The position numbers and the translations under genes were made by a program. The notes beneath the pieces are model-generated. The model saw only the letters and a list, made by a program, of their open reading frames with translations, was not told where the DNA came from and did not search any database. 64,000 nucleotides of DNA from Anaerolineae bacterium (lineage in GTDB: Bacteria > Chloroflexota > Anaerolineae > B4-G1 > SLSP01): assembly GCA_034429475.1 (NCBI GenBank), contig DAOUGD010000126.1:32818-96817 (forward strand), given 5' to 3'. Shown here one piece after another: positions 4,314 to 45,971 of this stretch (position 1 is its first letter; every line of letters begins with the position of its first letter).

Positions 4314-4345
4314 AGTGTAAAAGCGATTGGATGAAAAAAACTTTC

Positions 4346-4405
4346 TCAACGGATGTAACGGAATTTAACGGATATTTTCTCCGTTTAATCCGTTCAATCC
4401 GTTGA
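4346..4405. repeat. palindromic AACGGAT-unit element, copy A (TCAACGGAT-GTAACGGAAT-TTAACGGAT ... ATCCGTTTAATCCGTTCAATCCGTTGA)
   Basis: A full two-armed copy sits 20 bp upstream of mtnP. Family members are at 21270, 23441, 37805 and 44493. Confidence 0.75.
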
Positions 4406-4427
4406 GGCTATTTTCAGGGGAGGTTTT

Positions 4428-8924: not shown

Positions 8925-11327
8925 GTGCTGGCGGCGCGTTGCCTGGCAGAGGCGCCGTGGCGCTTCGATCTGTGGTCGGCGATCATTGGCGCGCTTCTGG
9001 CGTGGGGGATCGCGGGCTTTCTGTATACCCGCCGCGCGGCGATAAAAACATTCGCGCTGAAATTGTGGACGCCGCTGGTGGCGCTCCGCGCGCGGCTGCA
9101 ATCCAGCCAGGAAGAACGCTATGTGGATGATTTGCAGGAGGCTCTTCGGGGTCTCCTGCTTTTTGATCCGGTGGAGCCCCAGCTTGTCTTCTGCCCACCG
9201 ACTTTTCAGACGGCGGCCCCGGTGGTAGCGGCGTCCGTCGAAGGCGACAATTTCCTCGCGCTGCTGGAAATTCGCTTTGATGCCCTGCTGGAAGGTCACC
9301 CGCGCCTGCTGATTATCGGCCCCCAGGCTGCCGGCCGCACGACGACCCTGGTGATGGTTATGCGGCAGGTATTGGCGCAGGCCAAAGGCCGGAAACCCTA
9401 TACCCGCTTCCCGGTCTGGCTTGACCTGAATTATTTCAAAGAACTCCCCAATCCGCAGGCTTCGGCGCTGGATAAGCTCGCCGCGCTGGCGAATCTTTAC
9501 TTCCCCAGCCTGGCGCCCCAATGGGCGCTGACCCACCTCCGCCGTGATCCGGCGTTGATTTTGGTGGATAACTGGGAAGCGTTGCCTCCAAACGCTCGCG
9601 ATCAGGCGGCGCGATGGATTGGGGAGCTTTCCCGCGAATTGCCGGACAGTATCTGCCTGGTTTCCAGTGGGACGGAAGGCTATGGGCTGTTTGTGGAGGC
9701 CGGCTTTGTCCCGCTCACACTGGTTCCGGCAAAGGGCGCGGCGATGGTCGAGTCGCTCTACGGCGGCTGGGCGACGCTGCTTCAGCGGCCGGGGGCGATG
9801 CCCCCAGAACTGCGCCAGCTCCTGCTCTGGGCCGATCAGGCCGGAGCTTCGTTGTTGGAACTCAATTTGCGCCTTATGTTGTATCTCCTGACCGGCCAGG
9901 CGCCGGATTTCCTCATCGAAGTCCTCGACTATCTGCTGGACATCAAAATCCCTATGCTGAATCTGGGCGAGGGGCAGGAGACTGTCGCCGAACACGCCCG
10001 CACGCTGGCCATTGCGCTGGTCGGTCAGATTGCGCGCGAGCATCGGTTGGAAGGGCGCGTCATTATGCGGCAGGCCATTTATGACCGCCTGACCGCGATG
10101 CTGCCCCCGGAGGAAGAGCGTCCGCCTCGGCTGGAGGGCGCGGCGCGCAAGCTCATCTTTGACTCCGGTTTCTTGATGCAGCGGGGCAAAGCCTGGGAAC
10201 CCTCCCATTATTTGTGGGAAGATTTTCTGACCGCCTGGCATTTGAGCGGGGAAGACATCGGCCCGGACATGTTCAAGGCGCACCTCCACGACCCCAGTTG
10301 GAGTTTCCTCTTGGAGTTTTATGTGACGTTGGGGGATGTTACGCCGTTGGTTCACACGCTGCTTCAAGAGGCCGCCACGTATCAAAATGATGAGGCGGTG
10401 CTGCGCGCTGCGCGCTGGGCCACGCTGACGCCGGATGACGTTCCCTGGCGCAAGGATGTGATTAAAACCCTGGCGGAGGTCTTCGCCGATCCGGACTTGA
10501 CGCAGGAATGGCGGCTGCGTTTTGGGCGCTGTCTCTCCCTGGTCGCCGGCGGCGAGTCGGCTGCCTTCTTCCTTTCCAGCTTGCGTCATCGTAATATCGG
10601 TGTGCGCTGCGCGGCGCTGCGGGGCATCGGCTGGGTGGGCGGCGAGCGGGAAGTTGCGTTGCTGGAAGGCGCCCTCAAGGAATCGGAGCTGGAGATCGCC
10701 CAAAGCGCCGTGGAGGCTCTGGGCGACATGGGAACCGCGGAGGCGGCCAAACTGCTCAATCGCGTGCTGCCAACGGCCAACGAACATTTGATTTTGCCCA
10801 TCGCCCACGCGCTGGCTAAGATACCGGAGGGCCACGAACTGTTACAGCAGGCCGCCGAGAGCGAGGATTTCATGCTGCGCCGGGCGGCTGCGCATGGATT
10901 GGATTTGATTAATGAACCGTGGGCCGAAACTCTGCTGCAAAAGATGGCGCGCGAAGATGATGAGTGGCTGGTGCGTTCCGCCGCCGAAACGGCGCTGCAC
11001 GCGCGCGAGGAAAAGGCCGCTCACAAGACGGTGGTTCCGCCGCCGCCTAAAGTGGACGCTCTGGAATGGCTCATTGCCTGGGCTGCGGAGCAGGGCGTGG
11101 GTCTGGGGGTGGGGACGGCCGCCGTACAAATGCTGCTGCGCGCCGTGACCGAGGGCGACGCCCGCGCCAAAACTCTCGGCGCATTGACGTTGAGCCAGAT
11201 GGGGATTCCTAAGTTCCTGCCGTTGCTGGAGCCGCTGTTGGAAGATGAGGATTATCAGGTGAAGTACACTGCGGCTTATGCGGTGGAGCAAATTAAGCAG
11301 CGTTACGCTATTGATCAGGGGACGTGA
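8925..11327 (+). CDS. membrane-anchored STAND/NACHT-like P-loop NTPase with C-terminal HEAT/PBS-lyase repeats
   Basis: GTG start 4 nt after the regulator stop with a GAGGGG SD. There is an N-terminal TM helix, a Walker A-like GPQAAGRTTT (Arg where Lys is expected), a Walker B-like ALILVDNWE, and at least 5 HEAT-like repeats at the C-terminus. Confidence 0.6.
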   Translation: MLAARCLAEAPWRFDLWSAIIGALLAWGIAGFLYTRRAAIKTFALKLWTPLVALRARLQSSQEERYVDDLQEALRGLLLFDPVEPQLVFCPPTFQTAAPVVAASVEGDNFLALLEIRFDALLEGHPRLLIIGPQAAGRTTTLVMVMRQVLAQAKGRKPYTRFPVWLDLNYFKELPNPQASALDKLAALANLYFPSLAPQWALTHLRRDPALILVDNWEALPPNARDQAARWIGELSRELPDSICLVSSGTEGYGLFVEAGFVPLTLVPAKGAAMVESLYGGWATLLQRPGAMPPELRQLLLWADQAGASLLELNLRLMLYLLTGQAPDFLIEVLDYLLDIKIPMLNLGEGQETVAEHARTLAIALVGQIAREHRLEGRVIMRQAIYDRLTAMLPPEEERPPRLEGAARKLIFDSGFLMQRGKAWEPSHYLWEDFLTAWHLSGEDIGPDMFKAHLHDPSWSFLLEFYVTLGDVTPLVHTLLQEAATYQNDEAVLRAARWATLTPDDVPWRKDVIKTLAEVFADPDLTQEWRLRFGRCLSLVAGGESAAFFLSSLRHRNIGVRCAALRGIGWVGGEREVALLEGALKESELEIAQSAVEALGDMGTAEAAKLLNRVLPTANEHLILPIAHALAKIPEGHELLQQAAESEDFMLRRAAAHGLDLINEPWAETLLQKMAREDDEWLVRSAAETALHAREEKAAHKTVVPPPPKVDALEWLIAWAAEQGVGLGVGTAAVQMLLRAVTEGDARAKTLGALTLSQMGIPKFLPLLEPLLEDEDYQVKYTAAYAVEQIKQRYAIDQGT

Positions 11328-21173: not shown

Positions 21174-21269
21174 GGTGCCTCCGGCAAGTGTGGTATGGGA
21201 GATGGGGGGAGGGGATGAGGGGGAGAAGCGTTTCCCTTACTTCCTATCTCCCATTTCCTAAATAGAAGC

Positions 21270-21299
21270 TCAACGGATTTAACGGATTCAACGGAAGGA
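21270..21299. repeat. AACGGAT-unit element, copy B (single arm: TCAACGGATTTAACGGATTCAACGGAAGGA)
   Basis: Belongs to the same family as the element at 4346. Confidence 0.6.
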
Positions 21300-23440: not shown

Positions 23441-23494
23441 AGGATTTACGGAATGGTAGGATCAAAAATCCGTTTCAATCCGTTAAATCCGTTG
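23441..23494. repeat. AACGGAT-unit element, copy C
   Basis: The right arm ATCCGTTTCAATCCGTTAAATCCGTTGA is complete; the left arm is degenerate. Confidence 0.65.
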
Positions 23495-23767
23495 AGAGGA
23501 TTTTCGTTTGTCCTTAACTTTACTGCTTGATAGGCGAAACGTCAAATGCGGTGGGGGGACTGTAGCCGATTTTGTTGCTGGCAAAGTGAGAATAACGGCG
23601 GTCTGCGGTCTGTCGTCGGCGGTCAAAGTACATCAGGTAGCAACCCGAGTTACGTAATGTGATAAAATGCCCTCAGTATTTTTTATTCAAGCCGGCCTGA
23701 ATCTCTGGCCGACAACCCTCTGCCATACGCAGAGCGGCGCTAATCCACCATAGTAAGGAGGTTAACG

Positions 23768-35814: not shown

Positions 35815-35893
35815 AATAAAGACTATTTCACGCAAAGGCGCAAAGACGCAAAGTAAAAAACAAGAACTTGGCGAGCTTGGCGTCTTTGCGTGA
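35815..35893 (+). ncRNA. candidate structured small RNA / leader
   Basis: A long hairpin with ~17-bp stem (ATTTCACGCAAAG(GCGCAAAG)ACGC ... GCGTCTTTGCGTGAAAT) and CGCAAAG x3 sits just downstream of the predicted promoter. There is no coding capacity. Confidence 0.25.
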
Positions 35894-35949
35894 AATTTTC
35901 ATTCGACCGCTGGTGAACGGCCGGTTAATGATGAATTCCCTTGAAAATT

Positions 35950-36005: not shown

Positions 36006-36073
36006 CTAATCCTCCCGTGTTTTACGTTTTACGAAATGGGGTAGATAGTGTGCTCCCCAGATTGGAGTATCTG

Positions 36074-37792: not shown

Positions 37793-37804
37793 TTGAAGAT
37801 TTTT

Positions 37805-37861
37805 CTCAACGGATTCAACGGATTTGAACGGATTTTTCCGTTAAATTCGTTAAATCCGTTG
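37805..37861. repeat. AACGGAT-unit element, copy D (full, both arms)
   Basis: TCAACGGATTCAACGGATTTGAACGGAT-TTTT-CCGTTAAATTCGTTAAATCCGTTGA. Confidence 0.75.
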
Positions 37862-37884
37862 AGATATTGTTATGGAGGGAGACT

Positions 37885-38847
37885 ATGCGAGTGTTGGTGA
37901 CCGGCGCGGCGGGATTTATCGGAAGTAATCTAGCGGAAACGCTGCTGCGACGCGGCGATACGGTGGTGGGGCTGGATAATTTCTGCGACTATTACAGCCC
38001 GGCGCGCAAACGCGCCAACGCAGCGGTCCTGGCGGCTTATCCTGCCTTTACGCTGCACGAGCTGGACCTGCGCGACGAAGCCGGTGTGGCGCGCGTCATC
38101 GCGGAGGGCGTCTTCGACGCGGTGGCGCACCTGGGCGCGTTGGCGGGTGTGCGCTATTCTATCGAGCGCGCGCCGCTCTACACCGACGTGAACATCCGGG
38201 GCACGGTCAACGTGCTGGAGGGGATGCGCCACGCCGGGACGCCGCACATCGTCTTTGCCTCAACCTCGTCGGTTTATGGCAAGACGGAGCGACTACCTTT
38301 TAAAGAAGACGATCCCCTCGGCCAACCGTTGGCGCCCTATCCGGCCAGTAAAATCGCCGGGGAGTTGATGGGCTACACGTATCACAATCTCTTCAAGCTA
38401 TCCTTCACGGCGGTGCGCTTCTTCAGCGTCTACGGCCCGCGCGGGCGCCCCGATATGATGCCCTACACCATCACCGACAGCATTGTGCATGACAAATCTT
38501 TCAAGCTGTTCAACGCGGGCGAGATGTACCGCGACTGGACCTACGTGGGCGACATCGTCCAGGGCCTCATCGCCGCGCTGGAACGCCCGTTGGATTACAT
38601 CCGCCTGAACCTGGGGCGCGGCGAGCCGGTGCGCATGGCCGACTTCGTCACCCTGGTGGAGAAGCTGGTGGGCAAGTCCGCGCGGATGGAGACGCCGCCC
38701 GCCCCCGCCAGCGAGCCGCCCATCACCTACGCCGACATCACCCTGGCGCGTAATCTGCTCGGCTACGATCCGCACGTCTCCGTAGAAGAAGGGATGACGC
38801 GGTTCTGGGAGTGGTATCAGCGTGAGGCGTTAGGAGTGGCGAGTTAG
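37885..38847 (+). CDS. NAD-dependent epimerase/dehydratase (extended SDR, UDP-sugar 4-epimerase-like)
   Basis: GGAGGGAG RBS, a VLVTGAAGFIGSNL Rossmann motif and YxxxK. Confidence 0.75.
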   Translation: MRVLVTGAAGFIGSNLAETLLRRGDTVVGLDNFCDYYSPARKRANAAVLAAYPAFTLHELDLRDEAGVARVIAEGVFDAVAHLGALAGVRYSIERAPLYTDVNIRGTVNVLEGMRHAGTPHIVFASTSSVYGKTERLPFKEDDPLGQPLAPYPASKIAGELMGYTYHNLFKLSFTAVRFFSVYGPRGRPDMMPYTITDSIVHDKSFKLFNAGEMYRDWTYVGDIVQGLIAALERPLDYIRLNLGRGEPVRMADFVTLVEKLVGKSARMETPPAPASEPPITYADITLARNLLGYDPHVSVEEGMTRFWEWYQREALGVAS

Positions 38848-38884
38848 GAGTTAGTGCTGAGGACTGAGTGTTGAGGACTGAGTC
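38829..38884. repeat. left copy of an inverted repeat flanking the ammonia-lyase gene (coordinates +/-1)
   Basis: GTTAGGAGTGGCGAGTTAGGAG ... GCTGAGGACTGAG. It overlaps the last codons of the epimerase and is followed by 7-8-mer repeats (CGCTGACT / CGCTTTTT) running into the ATG. Confidence 0.6.
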
Positions 38885-38930
38885 TTCGTTGACTCGCTGA
38901 CTCGCTGATTCGCTTTTTCGCTTTTTCGCT

Positions 38931-40469
38931 ATGGAAACGATCATCATCACCGGTGAACATTTGACGATGGAGGATGTGGCCGCCGTGGCGGGGGGGGCGC
39001 GGGCGACGTTGGCGCCTTACGCGGCGGAGGCGATGGCGCGGTCGTGGGCGGGCGTGCAGACGCTCCTGGCGCACGGCGAGATCGCTTACGGGATCACGAC
39101 GGGCTTCGGCGCATTCAAGGGTCGCATCATTCCGCTGCACGAGGTGGCGGCGTTGCAGCGCAATCTGGTGTTGAGCCACGCGGCAGGCGTCGGGCCAGCG
39201 TTGGACGAGCGGACGGTGCGCGCGGTGATTGCGGTGCGTGTCAATACGCTGGCGATGGGCTATTCCGGCATCCGCCCACAGACGGCGGAGGCGCTGCTGG
39301 CGCTGTTGAACGCCGGCGTCACGCCGGTGATTCCGGCGTATGGCTCGCTGGGCGCCAGCGGCGATCTGGCCCCGCTGGCGCATCTCGCGTGCGTCCTCAT
39401 TGGCGAGGGCGAGGCGTGGTATGGCGGCGAGCGACTGCCCGGCGGCGTGGCGCTGCGCCGTGCCGGATTGACGCCGGTGGAACTTGGCGCGAAGGAAGGG
39501 CTGGCCCTGATCAACGGCACGGCGGTGACGACGGCCCTGGGCGCGCTGGTGGAGTTGCGGACCGAGAATCTCATCCGCGCCGCCGACATCGCGGGCGCGC
39601 TCTCGCTGGAGGCGTTGCGCGGCACCGTCGCCGCCTTCGACCCGCGCCTGCACTTCGTCCGCCCGCACCCGCGCCAGGTGGACGCGGCGGCGTACATGCG
39701 GCGCATCCTCGCCGGCAGCACGTTCGTCCGCCCCCACGATCCCCGCGACATTCAGGACGCCTATAGCTTGCGGTGCATCCCCCAGGTTCACGGCGCGGTG
39801 CGCGACACAGTGGCCTATGCGCGCTGGGCGCTGGAAATCGAACTCAACGCGGTGACGGATAATCCGTTGATTTTCTTCGACGCGGAAGGCCGCCCGGAGG
39901 TGCTGTCGGGCGGCAATTTCCACGCCGAGCCGGTAGGGCTGGCGCTGGATTACCTCAAGCTGGGGATGGTGGAACTGGGCAACATCAGCGAGCGGCGCAC
40001 GGCCCGGCTGGTGGACGAGGCGCTGAGCAACGGCCTGCCGCCGTTCCTCACGCGCTACGGTGGGCTGGAAAGCGGCTTTATGCTCGCGCAGTACACGGCG
40101 GCGGCGCTGGCCTCGCAGAACAAGGTGCTGGCGCATCCGGCCACGGCGGACTCGATTCCCACGTCCGCCAATACCGAGGATCACGTCAGCATGGCGACCA
40201 ACGCGGCGCACAACACCCGGCAGGTGGTGGACAACGTCGAGTGCATCGTCGCGGTGGAATTGTTGGCAGCCGCGCAGGGGATTGACTTGCGCCGCGCGCA
40301 GTTAGGGCGGACGGCGCAGTTGGGCAAGGGCACGGCGGTGGCCTACGAAGCCGTGCGCTCCTGCGCGCCCTTCCTGGAACACGACGCCCCGCTCGCGCCG
40401 CTGATCGAATCCGTGCGCGCCCTCATCGCCGGCGGAGAGCTGGTGAAAGCCGTGGACGCGGCGGTGTGA
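38931..40469 (+). CDS. MIO-dependent histidine/aromatic-amino-acid ammonia-lyase
   Basis: GSLGASGDLAPLAHLA carries the Ala-Ser-Gly MIO triad, 512 aa. No hutU or hutI is nearby, so substrate is unassigned. Confidence 0.8.
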   Translation: METIIITGEHLTMEDVAAVAGGARATLAPYAAEAMARSWAGVQTLLAHGEIAYGITTGFGAFKGRIIPLHEVAALQRNLVLSHAAGVGPALDERTVRAVIAVRVNTLAMGYSGIRPQTAEALLALLNAGVTPVIPAYGSLGASGDLAPLAHLACVLIGEGEAWYGGERLPGGVALRRAGLTPVELGAKEGLALINGTAVTTALGALVELRTENLIRAADIAGALSLEALRGTVAAFDPRLHFVRPHPRQVDAAAYMRRILAGSTFVRPHDPRDIQDAYSLRCIPQVHGAVRDTVAYARWALEIELNAVTDNPLIFFDAEGRPEVLSGGNFHAEPVGLALDYLKLGMVELGNISERRTARLVDEALSNGLPPFLTRYGGLESGFMLAQYTAAALASQNKVLAHPATADSIPTSANTEDHVSMATNAAHNTRQVVDNVECIVAVELLAAAQGIDLRRAQLGRTAQLGKGTAVAYEAVRSCAPFLEHDAPLAPLIESVRALIAGGELVKAVDAAV

Positions 40470-40602
40470 AGAGGGGGAGAGGAGGAGAGGAGGAGAGGGG
40501 GAGAGGGGGAGACTCAGTCCTCAGTCCTCAGCACTCAGCACCCCTAACTCGCCACTCCTAACTCCTAACTCCTAACTCCTAACTCCTATTTCCTATTTCG
40601 CT
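40470..40602. repeat. composite repeat block: (GGAGA/GGGGA)n purine array, right inverted-repeat copy (40511-40570), then CTAACTC x5 and CTATTTC x2 heptamers ending at the ATG
   Basis: Read directly from the sequence. Its reverse complement matches the block at 38829-38884. Confidence 0.65.
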
Positions 40603-41586
40603 ATGGACGCTTTAGTAACCGGAGCCACCGGGTGTGTGGGGGCCAACATTGTGGAGGCGCTGCTGGCGCGGGGGTATGGCGTGCGGGCGCTGCGGCGGGC
40701 AACGTCGCGGCTGGACGCGCTGGCGGGCCTGACGCCGGAATGGGCGGTGGGGGACGTGCTGGACGAGTCCGCCCTGCGCGCCGCGATGGACGGCTGCGCG
40801 TGGGTGTTCCACGCGGCGGCGGTGTCGCAATACTGGCGCAGCCACCCCGACGAGATTTATCGCGTCAACGTGACGGGGACGCGCAACGTGCTGTGGGCGG
40901 CGCAGGCGTGCGGCGTGCGCCGGGTGATTTTCACCAGTTCCGTGGCTGTGTTAGGCGTGCCGACGCAGCCGGGGCGAATCCTGGACGAGACGGCGACGTT
41001 CAACCTGCATCCGGCGCAATTCCATTACGGGCACAGCAAGTGGTTGGCCGAGGCGGACGTGCAGCGCGCCGTGGCGCAAGGATTGGACGTCGTCATCGTC
41101 AATCCGGCGTCCGTCATCGGGCAGCGCGATGTGAATTTTGTGGGGGGCGAAATTTTGCGGCTGGTGGCGCGGGGGCTGATGGTCGTCGCGCCGCCCGGCG
41201 CGATGGGGATCGTGGGGGCGCGCGCGGTGGGACTGGGCCACGTCCTGGCGGCGGAGCGGGGGCGCACCGGCGAGCGGTACATCCTCAACGGCGAAAATGT
41301 GCCTCATCGCGCCCTGCTGACGTTGATGGCTGAGGTGACGGGCGCGCGTCCGCCATTGATCACACTGCCGTCGGCGCTGGTGCGTCTGGCGGCGGGGGCG
41401 GTGCGCCTGGCGGGGCGGCTGTGCGGCAAGCCGCTGCCGGTGGACGCGGCGCAGTTGGAGTTGAGCGCGCGGGCGATGTGCTTTGACGGCGGCAAGGCGC
41501 ACCGGGAGTTGGATTTTCCTTTGGTGCCGGCGCGCGCGGCGGTGCAGGAGGCGTGGGACTGGTATGGCGCGCATGGCGGATTGTGA
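40603..41586 (+). CDS. NAD-dependent epimerase/dehydratase family protein (SDR)
   Basis: VTGATGCVGANIV Rossmann motif, 327 aa. Confidence 0.7.
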   Translation: MDALVTGATGCVGANIVEALLARGYGVRALRRATSRLDALAGLTPEWAVGDVLDESALRAAMDGCAWVFHAAAVSQYWRSHPDEIYRVNVTGTRNVLWAAQACGVRRVIFTSSVAVLGVPTQPGRILDETATFNLHPAQFHYGHSKWLAEADVQRAVAQGLDVVIVNPASVIGQRDVNFVGGEILRLVARGLMVVAPPGAMGIVGARAVGLGHVLAAERGRTGERYILNGENVPHRALLTLMAEVTGARPPLITLPSALVRLAAGAVRLAGRLCGKPLPVDAAQLELSARAMCFDGGKAHRELDFPLVPARAAVQEAWDWYGAHGGL

Positions 41587-41601: not shown

Positions 41602-43113
41602 ATGCAGTTAAAGTCGGAGCGGGAGTTGTACCGCCGACGGCGGGAGACGCCGTGGGTGCAATGGTTTGTGGTGATGCTGCTGCTGGGCATCGGTGGCTAC
41701 ATCGCATATTTAATCCTGGTGCGTATCGAGGCGCGGGTAGTGACGCCGGCCACCCCGACCCCGGCGCCGACGGCCACGCCCTCACCCCTGCTGCATATCG
41801 CGGAGGCGGAAGAGGCCTACTTTAGCGGTAATTTGGGGGCCGCAATCGTTGCCTACCAGCACGCGTTGGATTTGGAGCCTAATCAGACTGAACTGTACGT
41901 GATTTTGTCGCGTCTGCTAACGTTGCAGGAGCAGCCGGAGCGGGGGCTGTTGATGGCGAAGGAGGCGCTGCGCCGTCAGCCAGATAACGCGCGAGCGTGG
42001 GCGTTGGCAGGGTTGGCGTATGACTGGCTGGGGCTGCCCTACGAGGCGATTGCGGCGTGCGAAAAGGCGTTGGAACTCGATCCGACGTTGCCGGAGGCGT
42101 ATGCGTATCTGGCCGAAGCGTATATGGATGTCGGGAACTGGTTTGCCGCGAATGACGCTATCGGCACGGCGATGGAATTGGACGACGCCAATGTGGACGT
42201 GCTGCGCAATTACGGCTACGTATTAGAAAACCAGGGCAACTATTATGGGGCGATTGAGTCCTATAAAAAGGCGTTGGAGATTCAGCCGTTGGGATATGTT
42301 TACACGTCTATCGGACGCAACGCCGGCGCCGTGAACAATTTGCCGATGGCGCGGGATGCTTACAAAGAGGCGATCCAGTTTGATCCGGGCAACGCGCTGT
42401 TGCTGGATAACCTGGGATGGGTGTATTTGTTGATGGGGGACTACGACAATGCCCGGTCGGTGCTGCGCCAGGCATTGGATCTCGATCCCATCAACTCTGA
42501 CGCGGCTGCGCATCTGGCGACTCTGTACTATTACCAGCGCAATTACGAAGGCGCCATTGAACTGTTTCAACCGGCGATCCGCTACGGCGAGGCCCGCTCG
42601 CGGCGCCGGACGGTATTTTTTGTGATTACAGAAGAAGATTTGGGGCAGATAGGCGCAAAGCCCTCGGCCACGGAAGTGGCGCGTGCGGAATTTGTGCATC
42701 CATTAAATGTGGATATGCCCCTGCGCGCCGCGTTCGACGGCACTGAAGCAAATAGGGGGGGTCGGGGATACGTGCGGCTGGATGTGGGCAATGGGCGGTA
42801 TTCGTTGCGGTTGACGCAGATAGCGCCGCCGTCGCCCGCCAAGGTGTACGTAGGATGGTTCCTCCCTTTGCTGACGCCGGAGCGCGCGACGGTGCGCACG
42901 GAGCCGATTTTCCTGACTCCCGATGGCCGGGCAGAACTCGAAGGCGAAACTGGGACGGTGAAGGGTCCGCCGATTGAGACGTATTATACTTTGGCGCTGT
43001 GTTATTATTTTTTGGATGAGTGCAACAATGCGCAACCTTACATTCAGACTGCGCTGCGCCTGGACCCGGAAGACGCCAACGCCCGGCAAACGCTGAGCCT
43101 CTGTCAGCAGTGA
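41602..43113 (+). CDS. TPR-repeat protein with N-terminal TM anchor
   Basis: A TM helix (WFVVMLLLGIGGYIAYLIL) followed by multiple TPRs. Confidence 0.65.
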   Translation: MQLKSERELYRRRRETPWVQWFVVMLLLGIGGYIAYLILVRIEARVVTPATPTPAPTATPSPLLHIAEAEEAYFSGNLGAAIVAYQHALDLEPNQTELYVILSRLLTLQEQPERGLLMAKEALRRQPDNARAWALAGLAYDWLGLPYEAIAACEKALELDPTLPEAYAYLAEAYMDVGNWFAANDAIGTAMELDDANVDVLRNYGYVLENQGNYYGAIESYKKALEIQPLGYVYTSIGRNAGAVNNLPMARDAYKEAIQFDPGNALLLDNLGWVYLLMGDYDNARSVLRQALDLDPINSDAAAHLATLYYYQRNYEGAIELFQPAIRYGEARSRRRTVFFVITEEDLGQIGAKPSATEVARAEFVHPLNVDMPLRAAFDGTEANRGGRGYVRLDVGNGRYSLRLTQIAPPSPAKVYVGWFLPLLTPERATVRTEPIFLTPDGRAELEGETGTVKGPPIETYYTLALCYYFLDECNNAQPYIQTALRLDPEDANARQTLSLCQQ

Positions 43114-43142
43114 AAGTCTATCTGAAAATTCGGTTTAACCCG

Positions 43143-43187
43143 CGCTTTGCGCCTAAAGGCGCGAGTTGAAGGGCGTTTTTTTGGGCG
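43143..43187 (+). terminator. GC hairpin (GCGCC-TAAA-GGCGC) followed by a T7 run
   Basis: Read directly from the sequence. The T-run is ~12 nt from the stem, so this is weak. Confidence 0.3.
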
Positions 43188-43238
43188 GCGGGCGCAACTC
43201 GCTGCCCAAAGTCCCTCTTGAAATGAGATGGTTTCACA

Positions 43239-45971
43239 ATGAAAATTCTGCGAGAAAACTTTTTCCGTCAGTGGGCCGCGCCGGTAGGCGTGATGGGGTC
43301 GGCAGTGGCGCTGATCTACCGACGGTTGATCGCTGGTCAGGTGTTGGCCGGCGGCGACTTGCATCTGTATTTTTTCCCCTATTGGATGGCGGCGGCGCGG
43401 TCGTTCCTGGCCGGGAAGCTGCCCCTGTGGACGCCTGATCTGTTTGCGGGGGCGCCACTGCTGGCAAACTCGCAGATCGGCGTATTTTACCCCCTGAACT
43501 GGCCGTTGTGGTGGTTGTCGGGCGGCTCGTTGCTGGGGGTGACGCGCGCCCTGCACATCAGCGTGCTGCTGCATCTGGCGCTGGCGGCGCTGACAGCGTG
43601 TGTGTTGGCCCGGCGGGTGGGCGCTGCACCGTGGGGCGCAGCGCTGGCAGGACTGCTTTATGCCGGCGGCGGTTACCTGGGTCTGCACGTCGAACACTTG
43701 AACCAGTTGCAGGGATTGGCCTGGCTGCCCTTGGTGCTACTGCCGGGGCAAAAGGCGCAGTTTCACGTTTTGCGTTTCACGTTTCACGTTTCATTCCCCT
43801 CGCCTATAAGCATCATCGCCCTGACCCTTATGCTCCTGGCCGGTCACACCCAAATGGCCTTTATGGCCGGCGTCGGCCTTCTTGTCTGGAAAGCGGTGGA
43901 CTGCGGTTTCTGGAGCTTAGGGAATCGTTATTCCGTTTCTCGCGTGTCCTATTCCCTATTTCCTATTTCCTATTTCCTGTCCTTGCTTCCCTATGCCCTG
44001 GCCCCCTTGATCGCCGCCGTGCAACTGTTGCCCACCCTTGAGTTAGCGCAGTTTTCGCTTCGCAGCAGCGGTCTGCCGTGGCGGGAGGCGGTGTCGTTCT
44101 CCATCCGCCCGTGGGATTTGCCGGAAGCGTTGCTGCCGACTTATCTGGTCACGCCGCTGCTGCCGGAAGGTGTCGCCTACCTGGGGCTGGTGGGGATGGC
44201 GTTGGCGGCGTGGGGGGCGTGGCGGGGGCTGCGCCGCCGTGATAGGGACGCTTGGGCGGTGGTTGTGCTGGCCGGGGTGGGGGTGTTCCTGGCTCTGGGC
44301 GCTTACAACCCCCTGTATTTGGCGGCGATACGTCTGGGGATACCGGGCTTGATTCACTTCCGCGCTCCGGCGCGCTTCCTGGTGCTGTACACGCTGGGGA
44401 TGGCGCTGCTGGCCGGGCGTGGTTTCTCTGAGCTGCCGGAATTGTTGGGTGAGCTGCGGGGGCTTCTTTTTCGTCAGCAGATTAGAACGGAAGGCGGGGA
44501 TCAACGGAATACAACAGAAATCCCAAAAATCCGTTCAAATCCGTTCAATCCGTTGATACATTTGATCGGGGGTATCACAATCGTCCTGGCTTGCGTCGAA
44601 CTGTTGATTTCCTCCGCTTCCCTGCCGCACGCCGACGCGACGGCGGCGCGCGCTTACACCGACCTGCGCCCGGCGACCGCGCATCTGGTGGCGGCGACGC
44701 AAGCGGCATTGGCGGGCGAATGGCCGGGACGCTTTCTCAGTATTTCCAAGACGCTTTTCGACGCCGGGGACGAGGTGGACATGACGGCCATTTACGGGGA
44801 CGCGCTTTCGGCGGATGCCCTGTGGCAGTACAAGGTAGCGGCCAAACACCGAGAAGTGCTGTCGCCCAACCTGGCGTTGGCGTTTGGCGTCCCGGCGGCG
44901 GATGGCTACGATGGCGGCCTGCTGCCGTTGCGGCACTACAGCGCTTTCTCGCAGTTGATGTTGCCCGACGGCACGCTGGATGGCCGGCTGCGAGAGAATC
45001 TGACGAGCATCCCGGAAGCGCGCTGGCTTTCCCTGTTGGACGTGCGCTTCGTGATGACCGACAAGACCGGCGATGCCTGGGTGGAGGACGTGTTTTACGA
45101 CCGGCAATTTCAGCCGGCGCTAGCCGCTGACGCGTCGTTGTCGTTGGGATGGTTGCCGGACGATTTCACTGCCGATGCGTTGGGCCTGTTGTATGCCGGT
45201 GCCGGTAACGTCACGTTGACGTTGGGAGATGGGCGCGCGCTCACCGCAACGCTACCGGCTCAGGTGGCCGAGTCGCCGTATCGTGTGCGATGGGTTGCCG
45301 CCGCTCGCGTGACCGGCGTGACCTTGCAGGCCTCCACCCCCGGTTTGACGTTAACCGGCGCCAGTCTGTTAGACGAGCGGGCCGCCGCTTTCTATCCTCT
45401 GACGCTTTCAGCGCATTTCCGGCTGGCTCATTCCGGCGATGTGAAGATTTACGAGGCATTGGCGCCGTCATCCCGCGTATTCTGGACGCCGACCTATACG
45501 TGTGTGGCCGACGATGCGGTGGCGCTGGCGGTGATGCGCGATCCGGCTTTCGATCCGACGACAAACGCGGTCGTGCAGGGCTGTGAGGGCGGCGAGAGCG
45601 TGGCCGAGGAGGGCGGCGCGGCAGACATCCGGCTCATCCGGCGCAGCGCTACCGAGGTGCGGCTGGCCGTTACGACGCCCACGTCCGGCCTGTTGACCCT
45701 GGCTGAGGCGTGGTATCCCGGCTGGCAGGCGCGGGTGACTTCGGAAACGAACGACCTACTGTTCACATCGGTACTACAGGTGGATATTCTCTTTCGCGGG
45801 GTGCGGTTAGGGCCGGGAAACTGGTGGGTTACTTTTGCCTATCGGCCTCACGGATTGTTGGTGGGCGGCTGGCTCAGTTTAGTGGGCATGGCGGGATTCG
45901 GCGGGTATGCCGTGCGCTTGCGGCGAAGGCGCGGGACTGCTGCGTTAGAACCTTCTGACATATCATCGTGA
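43239..45971 (+). CDS. YfhO-family polytopic membrane protein (putative glycosyltransferase)
   Basis: The N-terminal YfhO-like pattern (LYFFPYW ... LWTPDLFAGAPLLANSQIGVFYPLNW) and many TM helices support this. The 910-aa ORF is intact despite three in-frame repeat insertions. Confidence 0.7.
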   Translation: MKILRENFFRQWAAPVGVMGSAVALIYRRLIAGQVLAGGDLHLYFFPYWMAAARSFLAGKLPLWTPDLFAGAPLLANSQIGVFYPLNWPLWWLSGGSLLGVTRALHISVLLHLALAALTACVLARRVGAAPWGAALAGLLYAGGGYLGLHVEHLNQLQGLAWLPLVLLPGQKAQFHVLRFTFHVSFPSPISIIALTLMLLAGHTQMAFMAGVGLLVWKAVDCGFWSLGNRYSVSRVSYSLFPISYFLSLLPYALAPLIAAVQLLPTLELAQFSLRSSGLPWREAVSFSIRPWDLPEALLPTYLVTPLLPEGVAYLGLVGMALAAWGAWRGLRRRDRDAWAVVVLAGVGVFLALGAYNPLYLAAIRLGIPGLIHFRAPARFLVLYTLGMALLAGRGFSELPELLGELRGLLFRQQIRTEGGDQRNTTEIPKIRSNPFNPLIHLIGGITIVLACVELLISSASLPHADATAARAYTDLRPATAHLVAATQAALAGEWPGRFLSISKTLFDAGDEVDMTAIYGDALSADALWQYKVAAKHREVLSPNLALAFGVPAADGYDGGLLPLRHYSAFSQLMLPDGTLDGRLRENLTSIPEARWLSLLDVRFVMTDKTGDAWVEDVFYDRQFQPALAADASLSLGWLPDDFTADALGLLYAGAGNVTLTLGDGRALTATLPAQVAESPYRVRWVAAARVTGVTLQASTPGLTLTGASLLDERAAAFYPLTLSAHFRLAHSGDVKIYEALAPSSRVFWTPTYTCVADDAVALAVMRDPAFDPTTNAVVQGCEGGESVAEEGGAADIRLIRRSATEVRLAVTTPTSGLLTLAEAWYPGWQARVTSETNDLLFTSVLQVDILFRGVRLGPGNWWVTFAYRPHGLLVGGWLSLVGMAGFGGYAVRLRRRRGTAALEPSDISS
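43760..43794. repeat. 7-mer tandem repeat (TTCACGTTT units) inside the YfhO-family CDS
   Basis: Read directly from the sequence. It encodes FHVLRFTFHVSF in-frame. Confidence 0.6.
43947..43982. repeat. 7-mer tandem repeat (CTATTTC x4) inside the YfhO-family CDS
   Basis: It encodes SLFPISYFLS in-frame. The same heptamer occurs in the intergenic block at 40586-40600. Confidence 0.6.
44493..44548. repeat. AACGGAT-unit element, copy E, inserted in-frame in the YfhO-family CDS
   Basis: TCAACGGAATACAACAGAAATCC-CAAAA-ATCCGTTCAAATCCGTTCAATCCGTTGA. It translates as ...DQRNTTEIPKIRSNPFNPLI... Confidence 0.65.

Follow-up and report, generated by a model that had tools for sequence, protein, structure and literature searches.

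Bacterial genomes harbor several families of short repeats that lie mostly between genes and, in some cases, within them. The Rickettsia palindromic elements (RPEs) are small palindromes found both between genes and in frame in functional genes (Ogata et al. 2000, as summarized in PMC10969869). The short tandemly repeated repetitive (STRR) sequences of cyanobacteria and the TAACTGA repeats of Beggiatoaceae and cyanobacteria are heptamer arrays that are mostly intergenic and often sit directly upstream of start codons; TAACTGA repeats occasionally overlap open reading frames (ORFs), with stop codons in the unit limiting their placement (PMC4679880). [quoted passage not shown] Here we describe a gene for a polytopic membrane protein in a 64,000-nt stretch of an Anaerolineae (Chloroflexota) contig, hereafter the window, that carries two tandem heptamer arrays and a palindrome of AACGGAT type in frame. 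We found no description of heptanucleotide repeats in Chloroflexi, or of palindromic intergenic repeats in Anaerolineae, in the searchable literature. We propose that genome-wide repeats have probably been tolerated in permissive segments of this glycosyltransferase fold C (GT-C) gene, and that the same constraint now acts on them as on the remainder of the protein.

Three in-frame repeat segments in a YfhO-like gene

Coordinates are positions in the 64-kb window, and the host gene lies on the + strand. The gene and its repeats, with the arrays as reported by Tandem Repeats Finder (TRF), are as follows.

43239..45971, + strand: host gene, 910 aa, a divergent YfhO-like polytopic membrane protein with a predicted GT-C fold (from the ORF, homology, and a structural model)
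43760..43794, + strand: heptamer array 1, (GTTTCAC)x4.9, imperfect (TRF span 43760-43793, period 7, 85% matches)
43946..43978, + strand: heptamer array 2, (TCCTATT)x4.6 (TRF span 43947-43978, period 7, 92% matches)
44485..44521, + strand: palindrome left arm, decayed units GAACGGAAG, CAACGGAAT, and CAACAGAAA (from the sequence; aa ~416-428, variable stretch 3)
44527..44557, + strand: palindrome right arm, three good units AATCCGTTC/A (peptide KIRSNPFNPLI)

As originally predicted from the DNA letters, 43239-45971 (+) is one reading frame without stops, carrying all three repeat blocks in frame. The blocks themselves needed redrawing: there is a heptamer array at 43760, but its unit is GTTTCAC and not the (TTCACGTTT)n first proposed, which has nine letters, and the AACGGAT element placed at 44493-44548 is present, but it was called complete when its left arm is decayed, and it extends beyond that end to ~44557. 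The unit of array 1 is read in all three frames to give the peptide QFHVLRFTFHVSF (aa 174-186, variable stretch 1), and array 2 encodes SYSLFPISYFLS (aa 237-248, variable stretch 2); across the three segments the peptides are FHVLRFTFHVSF, YSLFPISYFLS, and IRSNPFNPLIHLIGG. None of 300 codon shuffles of the host gene gave a period-7 TRF array with a score of at least 50 and the real gene has two, so the in-gene arrays are not a matter of chance. No inverted partners of arrays 1 and 2 were found within the gene, and matches to internal promoters or terminators in it are at consensus level only and at background frequency.

The palindrome is one of a dispersed family. Chance would give 7.1 +/- 2.8 copies of AACGGAT in the window; there are 23, a three-fold excess that none of 100 shuffles reached, and the 64 kb contain five AACGGAT palindromes or half-palindromes, the in-gene copy included. 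The palindromes are 55-75 nt long, and three units of ~9 nt, sharing an AC(G/A)GA core, make up each arm. The in-gene copy is predicted to form a hairpin of -19.9 kcal/mol, compared with -32 to -36 kcal/mol for intact intergenic copies.

The YfhO assignment made in the original prediction stands by way of the homologues, 29 of 38 of which match PF09586 (YfhO) at E <= 0.01 when aligned (best 9.2e-22; P0045, for example, scores 34.5 bits), and not for the host protein itself, which scores 12.8 bits (E = 0.037, C-terminal end only), below the gathering score of 28.5. A Pfam search of the host protein gave nothing above threshold, and NCBIfam gave no relevant match; the repeat insertions may contribute to the sub-threshold Pfam score. 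Its closest relatives are hundreds of proteins from Anaerolineae and Chloroflexota metagenome-assembled genomes, with 42-59% identity over ~95% of the length. For an AlphaFold model built on the homologue alignment (predicted local distance difference test [pLDDT] 80; predicted TM-score 0.81), Foldseek ranks two GT-C enzymes first among solved structures, AftD (E = 3e-9) and AglB (E = 2.5e-5), with TM-scores of just 0.3-0.4. As in GT-C enzymes, a polytopic N-terminal membrane module goes with a conserved acidic residue in the first extracytoplasmic loop; G39-D40 in this loop is invariant in the 38 homologues, which share ~150 invariant positions overall. Because the homologues match PF09586 and the model resembles AftD and AglB, we take the predicted protein to be a divergent YfhO-like GT-C glycosyltransferase.

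The gene can be compared with that of a sister lineage (lineage B: L001, L002, L084, and L085), whose four assemblies are mutually identical and have 85.5% nucleotide identity to the window. An assembly artefact was ruled out, since the same host-gene DNA is present in independent assemblies (L083, no mismatches in 5839 nt; L082, one mismatch in 22,733 nt) and lineage B was recovered four times; an identical host protein is encoded on 8 contigs. Between the window and lineage B, the ratio of non-synonymous to synonymous substitution rates (dN/dS) is 0.197 over 2718 aligned sites, and the host gene is under purifying selection. It had been suggested that the gene is a recent pseudogene in the making, and both the three repeat blocks and the want of a Pfam match above threshold could be taken that way; however, the dN/dS value shows that it is not a pseudogene, and the invariant positions (G39-D40 among them), the confident full-length model, and an ORF that is intact in 79 of 81 orthologues all agree. 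We give the pseudogene explanation almost no weight and regard it as effectively refuted.

Selection on the repeat segments themselves differs between the arms of the palindrome. Counting the two arrays and the right arm together, ~83 sites hold 8 non-synonymous differences from lineage B, near the gene average, whereas in the left arm ~34 sites hold 12, a roughly neutral rate. Both arrays are found at the same positions in lineage B with the same number of units, array 1 with 7 substitutions and array 2 with 2, and copy number is the same in three assemblies of the window lineage and four of lineage B. The only indels relative to lineage B, of 12 and 18 nt and in frame, fall in the third stretch, just upstream of the palindrome left arm. 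The stable copy number and a non-synonymous divergence like that of the gene as a whole indicate that constraint now acts on the segments, as protein or as DNA, and that they are not hypervariable tracts.

The expected protein-length polymorphism among strains was therefore not borne out; lengths differ only between more distant lineages. A related explanation is that the gene is a contingency locus in which one-unit slippage switches a surface glycosyltransferase on and off, as in Haemophilus and Neisseria. The unit length is not a multiple of three, envelope glycosyltransferases are classic targets of phase variation (PMC2651432), and two GT-C families are affected (see below), all of which would fit. 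Yet with 4.6-4.9 copies and 85-92% matches the tracts are neither long nor perfect, their copy number is unchanged across 14% nucleotide divergence, and no array-bearing orthologue is broken in frame at its array, although consensus assemblies may miss rare minority variants. No length variants were seen among the seven assemblies, and we reject phase variation as very improbable. The population sample is small, because a metagenome scan over array 2 that allowed for two units more or fewer gave two contigs, both of lineage B and identical to L002; a pattern that covered the two arrays and bridged them by a long run of N gave no match in the metagenomes.

In the N-terminal membrane part of the alignment, the three repeat segments map to the sole strongly length-variable stretches: among 38 homologues, variable stretches 1, 2, and 3 span 25-53, 37-115, and 47-108 aa, compared with 48-49 and 57-72 aa for two control segments. 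In the AlphaFold model, array 1 forms a beta-hairpin (171-186) with helices 154-166 and 189-200 on either side, array 2 forms low-confidence coil (227-236 with pLDDT below 50) and the first turns of helix 241-258, and the palindrome forms coil (418-437), its right arm running into transmembrane helix 438-459; these local features are of limited confidence, as just two sequences in the alignment share the segments. The model thus places all three segments between helices, with two predicted to extend into the start of the next one. These indel-rich, inter-helix positions support the proposal that repeats of intergenic type have become coding segments in a polytopic membrane protein, through tolerance or exaptation, and the more distant orthologues lack the peptides.

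We note that in distant orthologues (P0100, P0111, and P0116; L036, L038, L042, and others) the region at query aa ~400-440 is a hydrophobic stretch of 70-85 aa, apparently comprising two extra transmembrane helices, where the window clade has a short polar stretch with the palindrome.

Related repeats between genes and at orthologous loci

The window contains ~20 arrays of period 7 or 8, with several unit types. We compared the repeats with the gene calls of an identical Joint Genome Institute (JGI) contig, and with ORFs at three doubtful places; outside the host gene, all checked copies of the arrays of 7-10-nt units and of four further AACGGAT palindromes are intergenic. The two arrays related to those in the gene, and the four palindromes (for which no strand is assigned), are the following.

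40584..40604, + strand: (TCCTATT)x2.9 intergenic array (TRF), abutting the epimerase-gene start codon; unit and orientation as in array 2
36019..36033, + strand: (GTTTTAC)x2.1 intergenic array upstream of recJ (TRF), GTTTCAC in lineage B; unit family and orientation of array 1
4345..4406: intact AACGGAT palindrome, 3+3 units, -31.8 kcal/mol, 22 nt upstream of ATG 4428
37805..37863: intact AACGGAT palindrome in the recJ/epimerase-gene spacer, -36.2 kcal/mol, 95% conserved in lineage B
23441..23496: AACGGAT palindrome with the left arm decayed like the in-gene copy, intergenic
21269..21296: half element of three AACGGAT units only, intergenic

The first of these confirms the prediction that the unit of the second block also occurs between genes near 40586-40600, and it lies by the ATG of the next gene. 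Several spacers consist almost entirely of arrays that reach the start codon (for example 40470-40604), and such intergenic arrays, which are often at start codons and change more slowly than four-fold sites, merit study in their own right.

To either side of this theme there are several further observations. Repeats 0-25 nt from start codons are found at 4345-4406 (ATG 4428), 37805-37863 (ATG 37885), 38909-38930 (ATG 38931), and 40584-40602 (ATG 40603), and arrays run right up to the ATG of the lyase gene and of the second epimerase gene, without a visible Shine-Dalgarno sequence. The spacers on either side of the aromatic amino-acid lyase gene (38931-40469), at 38822-38885 and 40510-40587, are inverted copies of each other, with TTAGGAG/CTGAGGA arrays upstream and TCCTCAG/CCTAACT arrays downstream; the arms are 84-90% complementary, ~1.6 kb apart, and arranged alike in lineage B, and could belong to a cassette-like structure or pair over long range as RNA. 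Upstream of recJ, the spacer has a block of ~110 nt at 35829-35938 that is not in lineage B; this block contains (ACGCAAAG)x3 followed by an inverted copy (GGCGTCTTTGCGTG), and looks like a recently gained octamer-based palindromic element. Immediately upstream of the host gene, the spacer 43113-43238 is swapped relative to L002 (~9917-10000): what stands in the window is a GC-rich hairpin and then a run of T, resembling a terminator, and lineage B has an AACGGAT palindrome instead. Palindromes are thus gained and lost, this spacer holding one in lineage B and none in the window.

We then consider orthologous loci, using a census of 81 loci (1.32 Mb) with orthologue DNA from 80 species-level genomes. 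Strict arrays are distributed as follows.

YfhO-like genes: 33 arrays in 210 kb
Other ORFs: 13 arrays in 844 kb
Remaining DNA: 26 arrays in 268 kb

The array density in the YfhO-like gene across the 81 loci is thus ~10 times that of other ORFs, and no lower than that of non-coding DNA. Two of the 13 arrays in other ORFs lie in upstream leaders and are not truly coding, and about nine of the rest are in genes matching PMT_2, another GT-C family. Other heptamer arrays occupy the same sites in L004-L010, L014, L026, L051, and others, where they encode 7-residue periodic peptides (such as SSIQHPA x8, QRSAVSG, and NGKWQMA) at aa ~168-189, 209-255, and 433-462 of the query, a few others lying at ~500 and ~795. 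The idea that the three segments are simple lineage-specific insertions needs amendment: they are not one-off events, and the same sites carry other arrays or palindromes in many orthologues.

The PMT_2 genes with in-frame arrays are at L075 7912-9693, L064 8256-9968, L053 918-2351, L061 3799-5346, and L055 2903-4597; these are in more distant relatives, have arrays of up to (TCAAATA)x13.9 and (GCCATTT)x10, and for the most part lie just upstream of the YfhO-like gene. In the L004 and L008 orthologues, the arrays of stretches 1 and 2 are mutually reverse complementary, (GGTAGAC)n and (GTCTACC)n, at gene nt ~430-490 and ~660-800, where they flank a conserved GHTQ helix.

At the third site, palindromes are present in L004, L005, L008, L009, L025, L026, L030, L032, and L035, at orthologue identities down to 40%; those of the orthologues are of CACAGAG/CACGGAG type, and those of the window and lineage B of AACGGAT type. 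The encoded peptides vary by genome (TTETQRTQ...LRVSVVK compared with ...IRSNPFNPL), and the stretch is short and without a palindrome in L003 (17 aa) and L014 (12 aa). Because related palindromes occupy the site in so many orthologues, the element is either ancient or recurrent. Elements of the AC(G/A)GA family also occur outside the YfhO-like gene in L009, L035, L049, L066, and lineage B.

Two patterns in the census bear on how arrays persist in coding sequence. In-gene arrays are nearly confined to genomes whose flanking DNA has them as well (Spearman 0.65, P = 7e-10; odds ratio 51 in a Fisher test). Units in which some rotation contains a stop codon account for 6 of 66 arrays inside the gene, compared with 32 of 88 elsewhere (P = 1e-4). 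In each of these six, the one copy that would put the stop in frame carries a mutation, as in L004 and L008, where TAG has become CAG. Of the 81 orthologues, 79 are in a single frame and free of stops, and none is broken at an array.

Origin and constraint of the coding repeats

In the explanation we favor, this genome, like those of many relatives, is strewn with short repeats of two sorts: arrays of 7-nt (and 8-nt) units in tandem, and palindromes of 55-75 nt. Both have their usual home in intergenic spacers, and copies of both now lie in three inter-helix stretches that are permissive in length and sequence, where they are translated. Translation of a heptamer array uses each of its three frames in turn and yields a peptide with a period of seven residues. 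Two filters then act: the survivors are those whose total lengths preserve the frame, and those with units or orientations lacking stops, an offending in-frame copy being mutated. Thereafter purifying selection acts on the segments as it does on the protein at large, with two of them predicted to begin the following helix, while the unneeded left arm of the palindrome decays. The sequences show the repeats with their frame and placement, the spacer counterparts, the purifying selection, the stop-codon filter, the stable copy numbers, and the recurrence across the family; we infer that the repeats entered by insertion or ectopic copying and did not arise in place, and that tolerance alone would account for their collection in GT-C genes. 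The stop-codon filter shows selection at work, with the lone offending copy in an array repaired, and the gene family offers a natural system for how non-coding repeats turn into protein sequence, including the beginnings of helices.

Heptamer arrays might instead be born in place, by replication slippage on 7-nt motifs in unconstrained coding loops, their likeness to intergenic arrays reflecting a shared mutational bias; this differs from the favored explanation in origin alone. Heptamers are reported to be the commonest long simple repeats in many bacterial genomes, and polymerase slippage has been proposed as their source, as Mrazek and colleagues are cited in PMC4679880. There are 107 distinct units among the 154 arrays, most of them unique to one locus, and arrays are homogenized locally, since L054 and L069 differ by one C/T change that is repeated in every unit, as expected of concerted evolution. 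With such diversity, a single mobile source recognizable by a shared unit vocabulary is a weak candidate. However, single 7-nt steps break the frame, and birth within a selected gene therefore requires 21-nt jumps or paired compensating events; array 2 shares unit and orientation with a spacer array that lies 3.3 kb upstream, and the array in the recJ spacer is a match for array 1; 11 loci have GTTTCAC-like units and 9 have ACGAATT-like ones; and the palindrome clearly comes from a dispersed family. Birth in place is to our minds possible but somewhat doubtful. The evidence on import as against birth in place is split: unit diversity favors local birth, and frame limits and identity to the spacers favor import.

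Several observations weigh against tolerance of imported repeats as the full account. The insertion step itself was not observed, and the diversity of units fits local birth at least as well as mobile spread. The tenfold enrichment over other ORFs is unexplained by tolerance alone, and most other coding arrays fall in the second GT-C family, PMT_2, while the other membrane proteins of the window have none. Moreover, the repeats change slowly at the nucleotide level. The repeat-built spacers 38848-38930, 40470-40602, and 37793-37884 are 3-10% diverged from L002, compared with 11-26% at four-fold sites of the flanking genes, and because of this difference the intergenic repeats seem, from these alignments, to be constrained or homogenized. 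In four of six genome pairs, arrays common to both members have a proportion of synonymous differences (pS) of 0.13-0.16, where the remainder of the gene has 0.29-0.56. Left arms of palindromes decay while right arms stay conserved, without a single difference among genomes whose overall identity is 84-88% (29/29 nt in the window and lineage B, past the first two bases, and 37/37 among L032, L035, and L041). Together, the low array pS, the identical right arms, and the slow spacers hint at a constraint on the DNA or RNA itself, although ascertainment and concerted evolution could also produce low divergence in arrays, spacers, and right arms.

These same observations would be expected if the embedded repeats were functional nucleic-acid elements, either binding sites on DNA or RNA for proteins or mRNA pause structures between transmembrane segments, preferentially kept in GT-C genes. 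The AATCCGTTC units are spaced 9-10 nt apart, arrays of the same kind abut start codons in spacers, palindromes of -42 to -48 kcal/mol are retained within the ORF in L032 and L035, and it is in two GT-C families specifically that arrays are enriched. On the other hand, 18 palindromes folded on both strands show no consistent advantage of the sense strand, the window's in-gene palindrome is half decayed, the synonymous divergence of array 1 is ordinary (4 in 7.8 sites), the arrays are replaced in the other two of the six pairs, and a Rfam scan of the whole window matched no family. Demanding an array in both genomes also biases toward low divergence, and concerted evolution of the kind seen in L054 and L069 suppresses it further; we did not accept low synonymous divergence of arrays as proof of function. 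A nucleic-acid function is thus unlikely to be the reason the repeats are kept. We likewise think it improbable that the YfhO-like and PMT_2-like genes of this Anaerolineae clade are preferred and long-lived hosts because the repeats act at the DNA or RNA level; if they are, the coding sequence bears a second, conserved layer of nucleic-acid information. We continue to favor tolerance of genome-wide repeats in permissive segments. In practical terms, repeat masking, or rules that place gene boundaries at repeats, would wrongly split such genes.

Comparison with described repeat systems

The classical contingency loci of Haemophilus and Neisseria resemble this locus in having a non-triplet unit within a surface glycosyltransferase gene (PMC2651432), and differ in that the present tracts are short and imperfect and keep their copy number, with no out-of-frame alleles found among the assemblies and orthologues. 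REP sequences and ERIC share with the palindromes described here a dispersed distribution, the capacity to form hairpins, and gain and loss between close lineages, as seen in the upstream spacer of lineage B and the window. Unlike REP sequences, the arm here is made of three direct sub-repeats; no terminal duplications were evident in the palindrome copies inspected by eye.

STRR and TAACTGA repeats are similar to the arrays in their tandem 7-nt units, in the presence of several types per genome, and in being mainly intergenic and by start codons. The host here, however, belongs to the class Anaerolineae of the Chloroflexota, the canonical STRR units are not matched, and the many unit types lack a dominant heptamer. 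The arrays also lie deep in a conserved enzyme gene, in frame as 7-residue periodic peptides, and at a density at least that of non-coding DNA.

For in-frame repeats, the nearest precedent is the RPEs. As far as they are described in the source above, they too are a dispersed family of palindromes that occupies fold-compatible sites in host genes still under selection. By the same description, RPEs are ~100-150 bp with a conserved peptide per family, whereas the elements here are 55-75 bp, with three ~9-nt units per arm and peptides that vary; and RPEs enter many unrelated genes, whereas the repeats sampled here concentrate in GT-C genes and occupy one and the same site in orthologues with as little as 40% identity. 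In the window gene just one segment is a palindrome, the other two being tandem heptamer arrays. In-frame colonization by repeats, best known from Rickettsia, would thus extend to a free-living phylum, to tandem heptamer arrays whose reading in three frames gives 7-residue periodic peptides, and to a strong preference, in the 1.3 Mb of DNA sampled, for GT-C glycosyltransferases.

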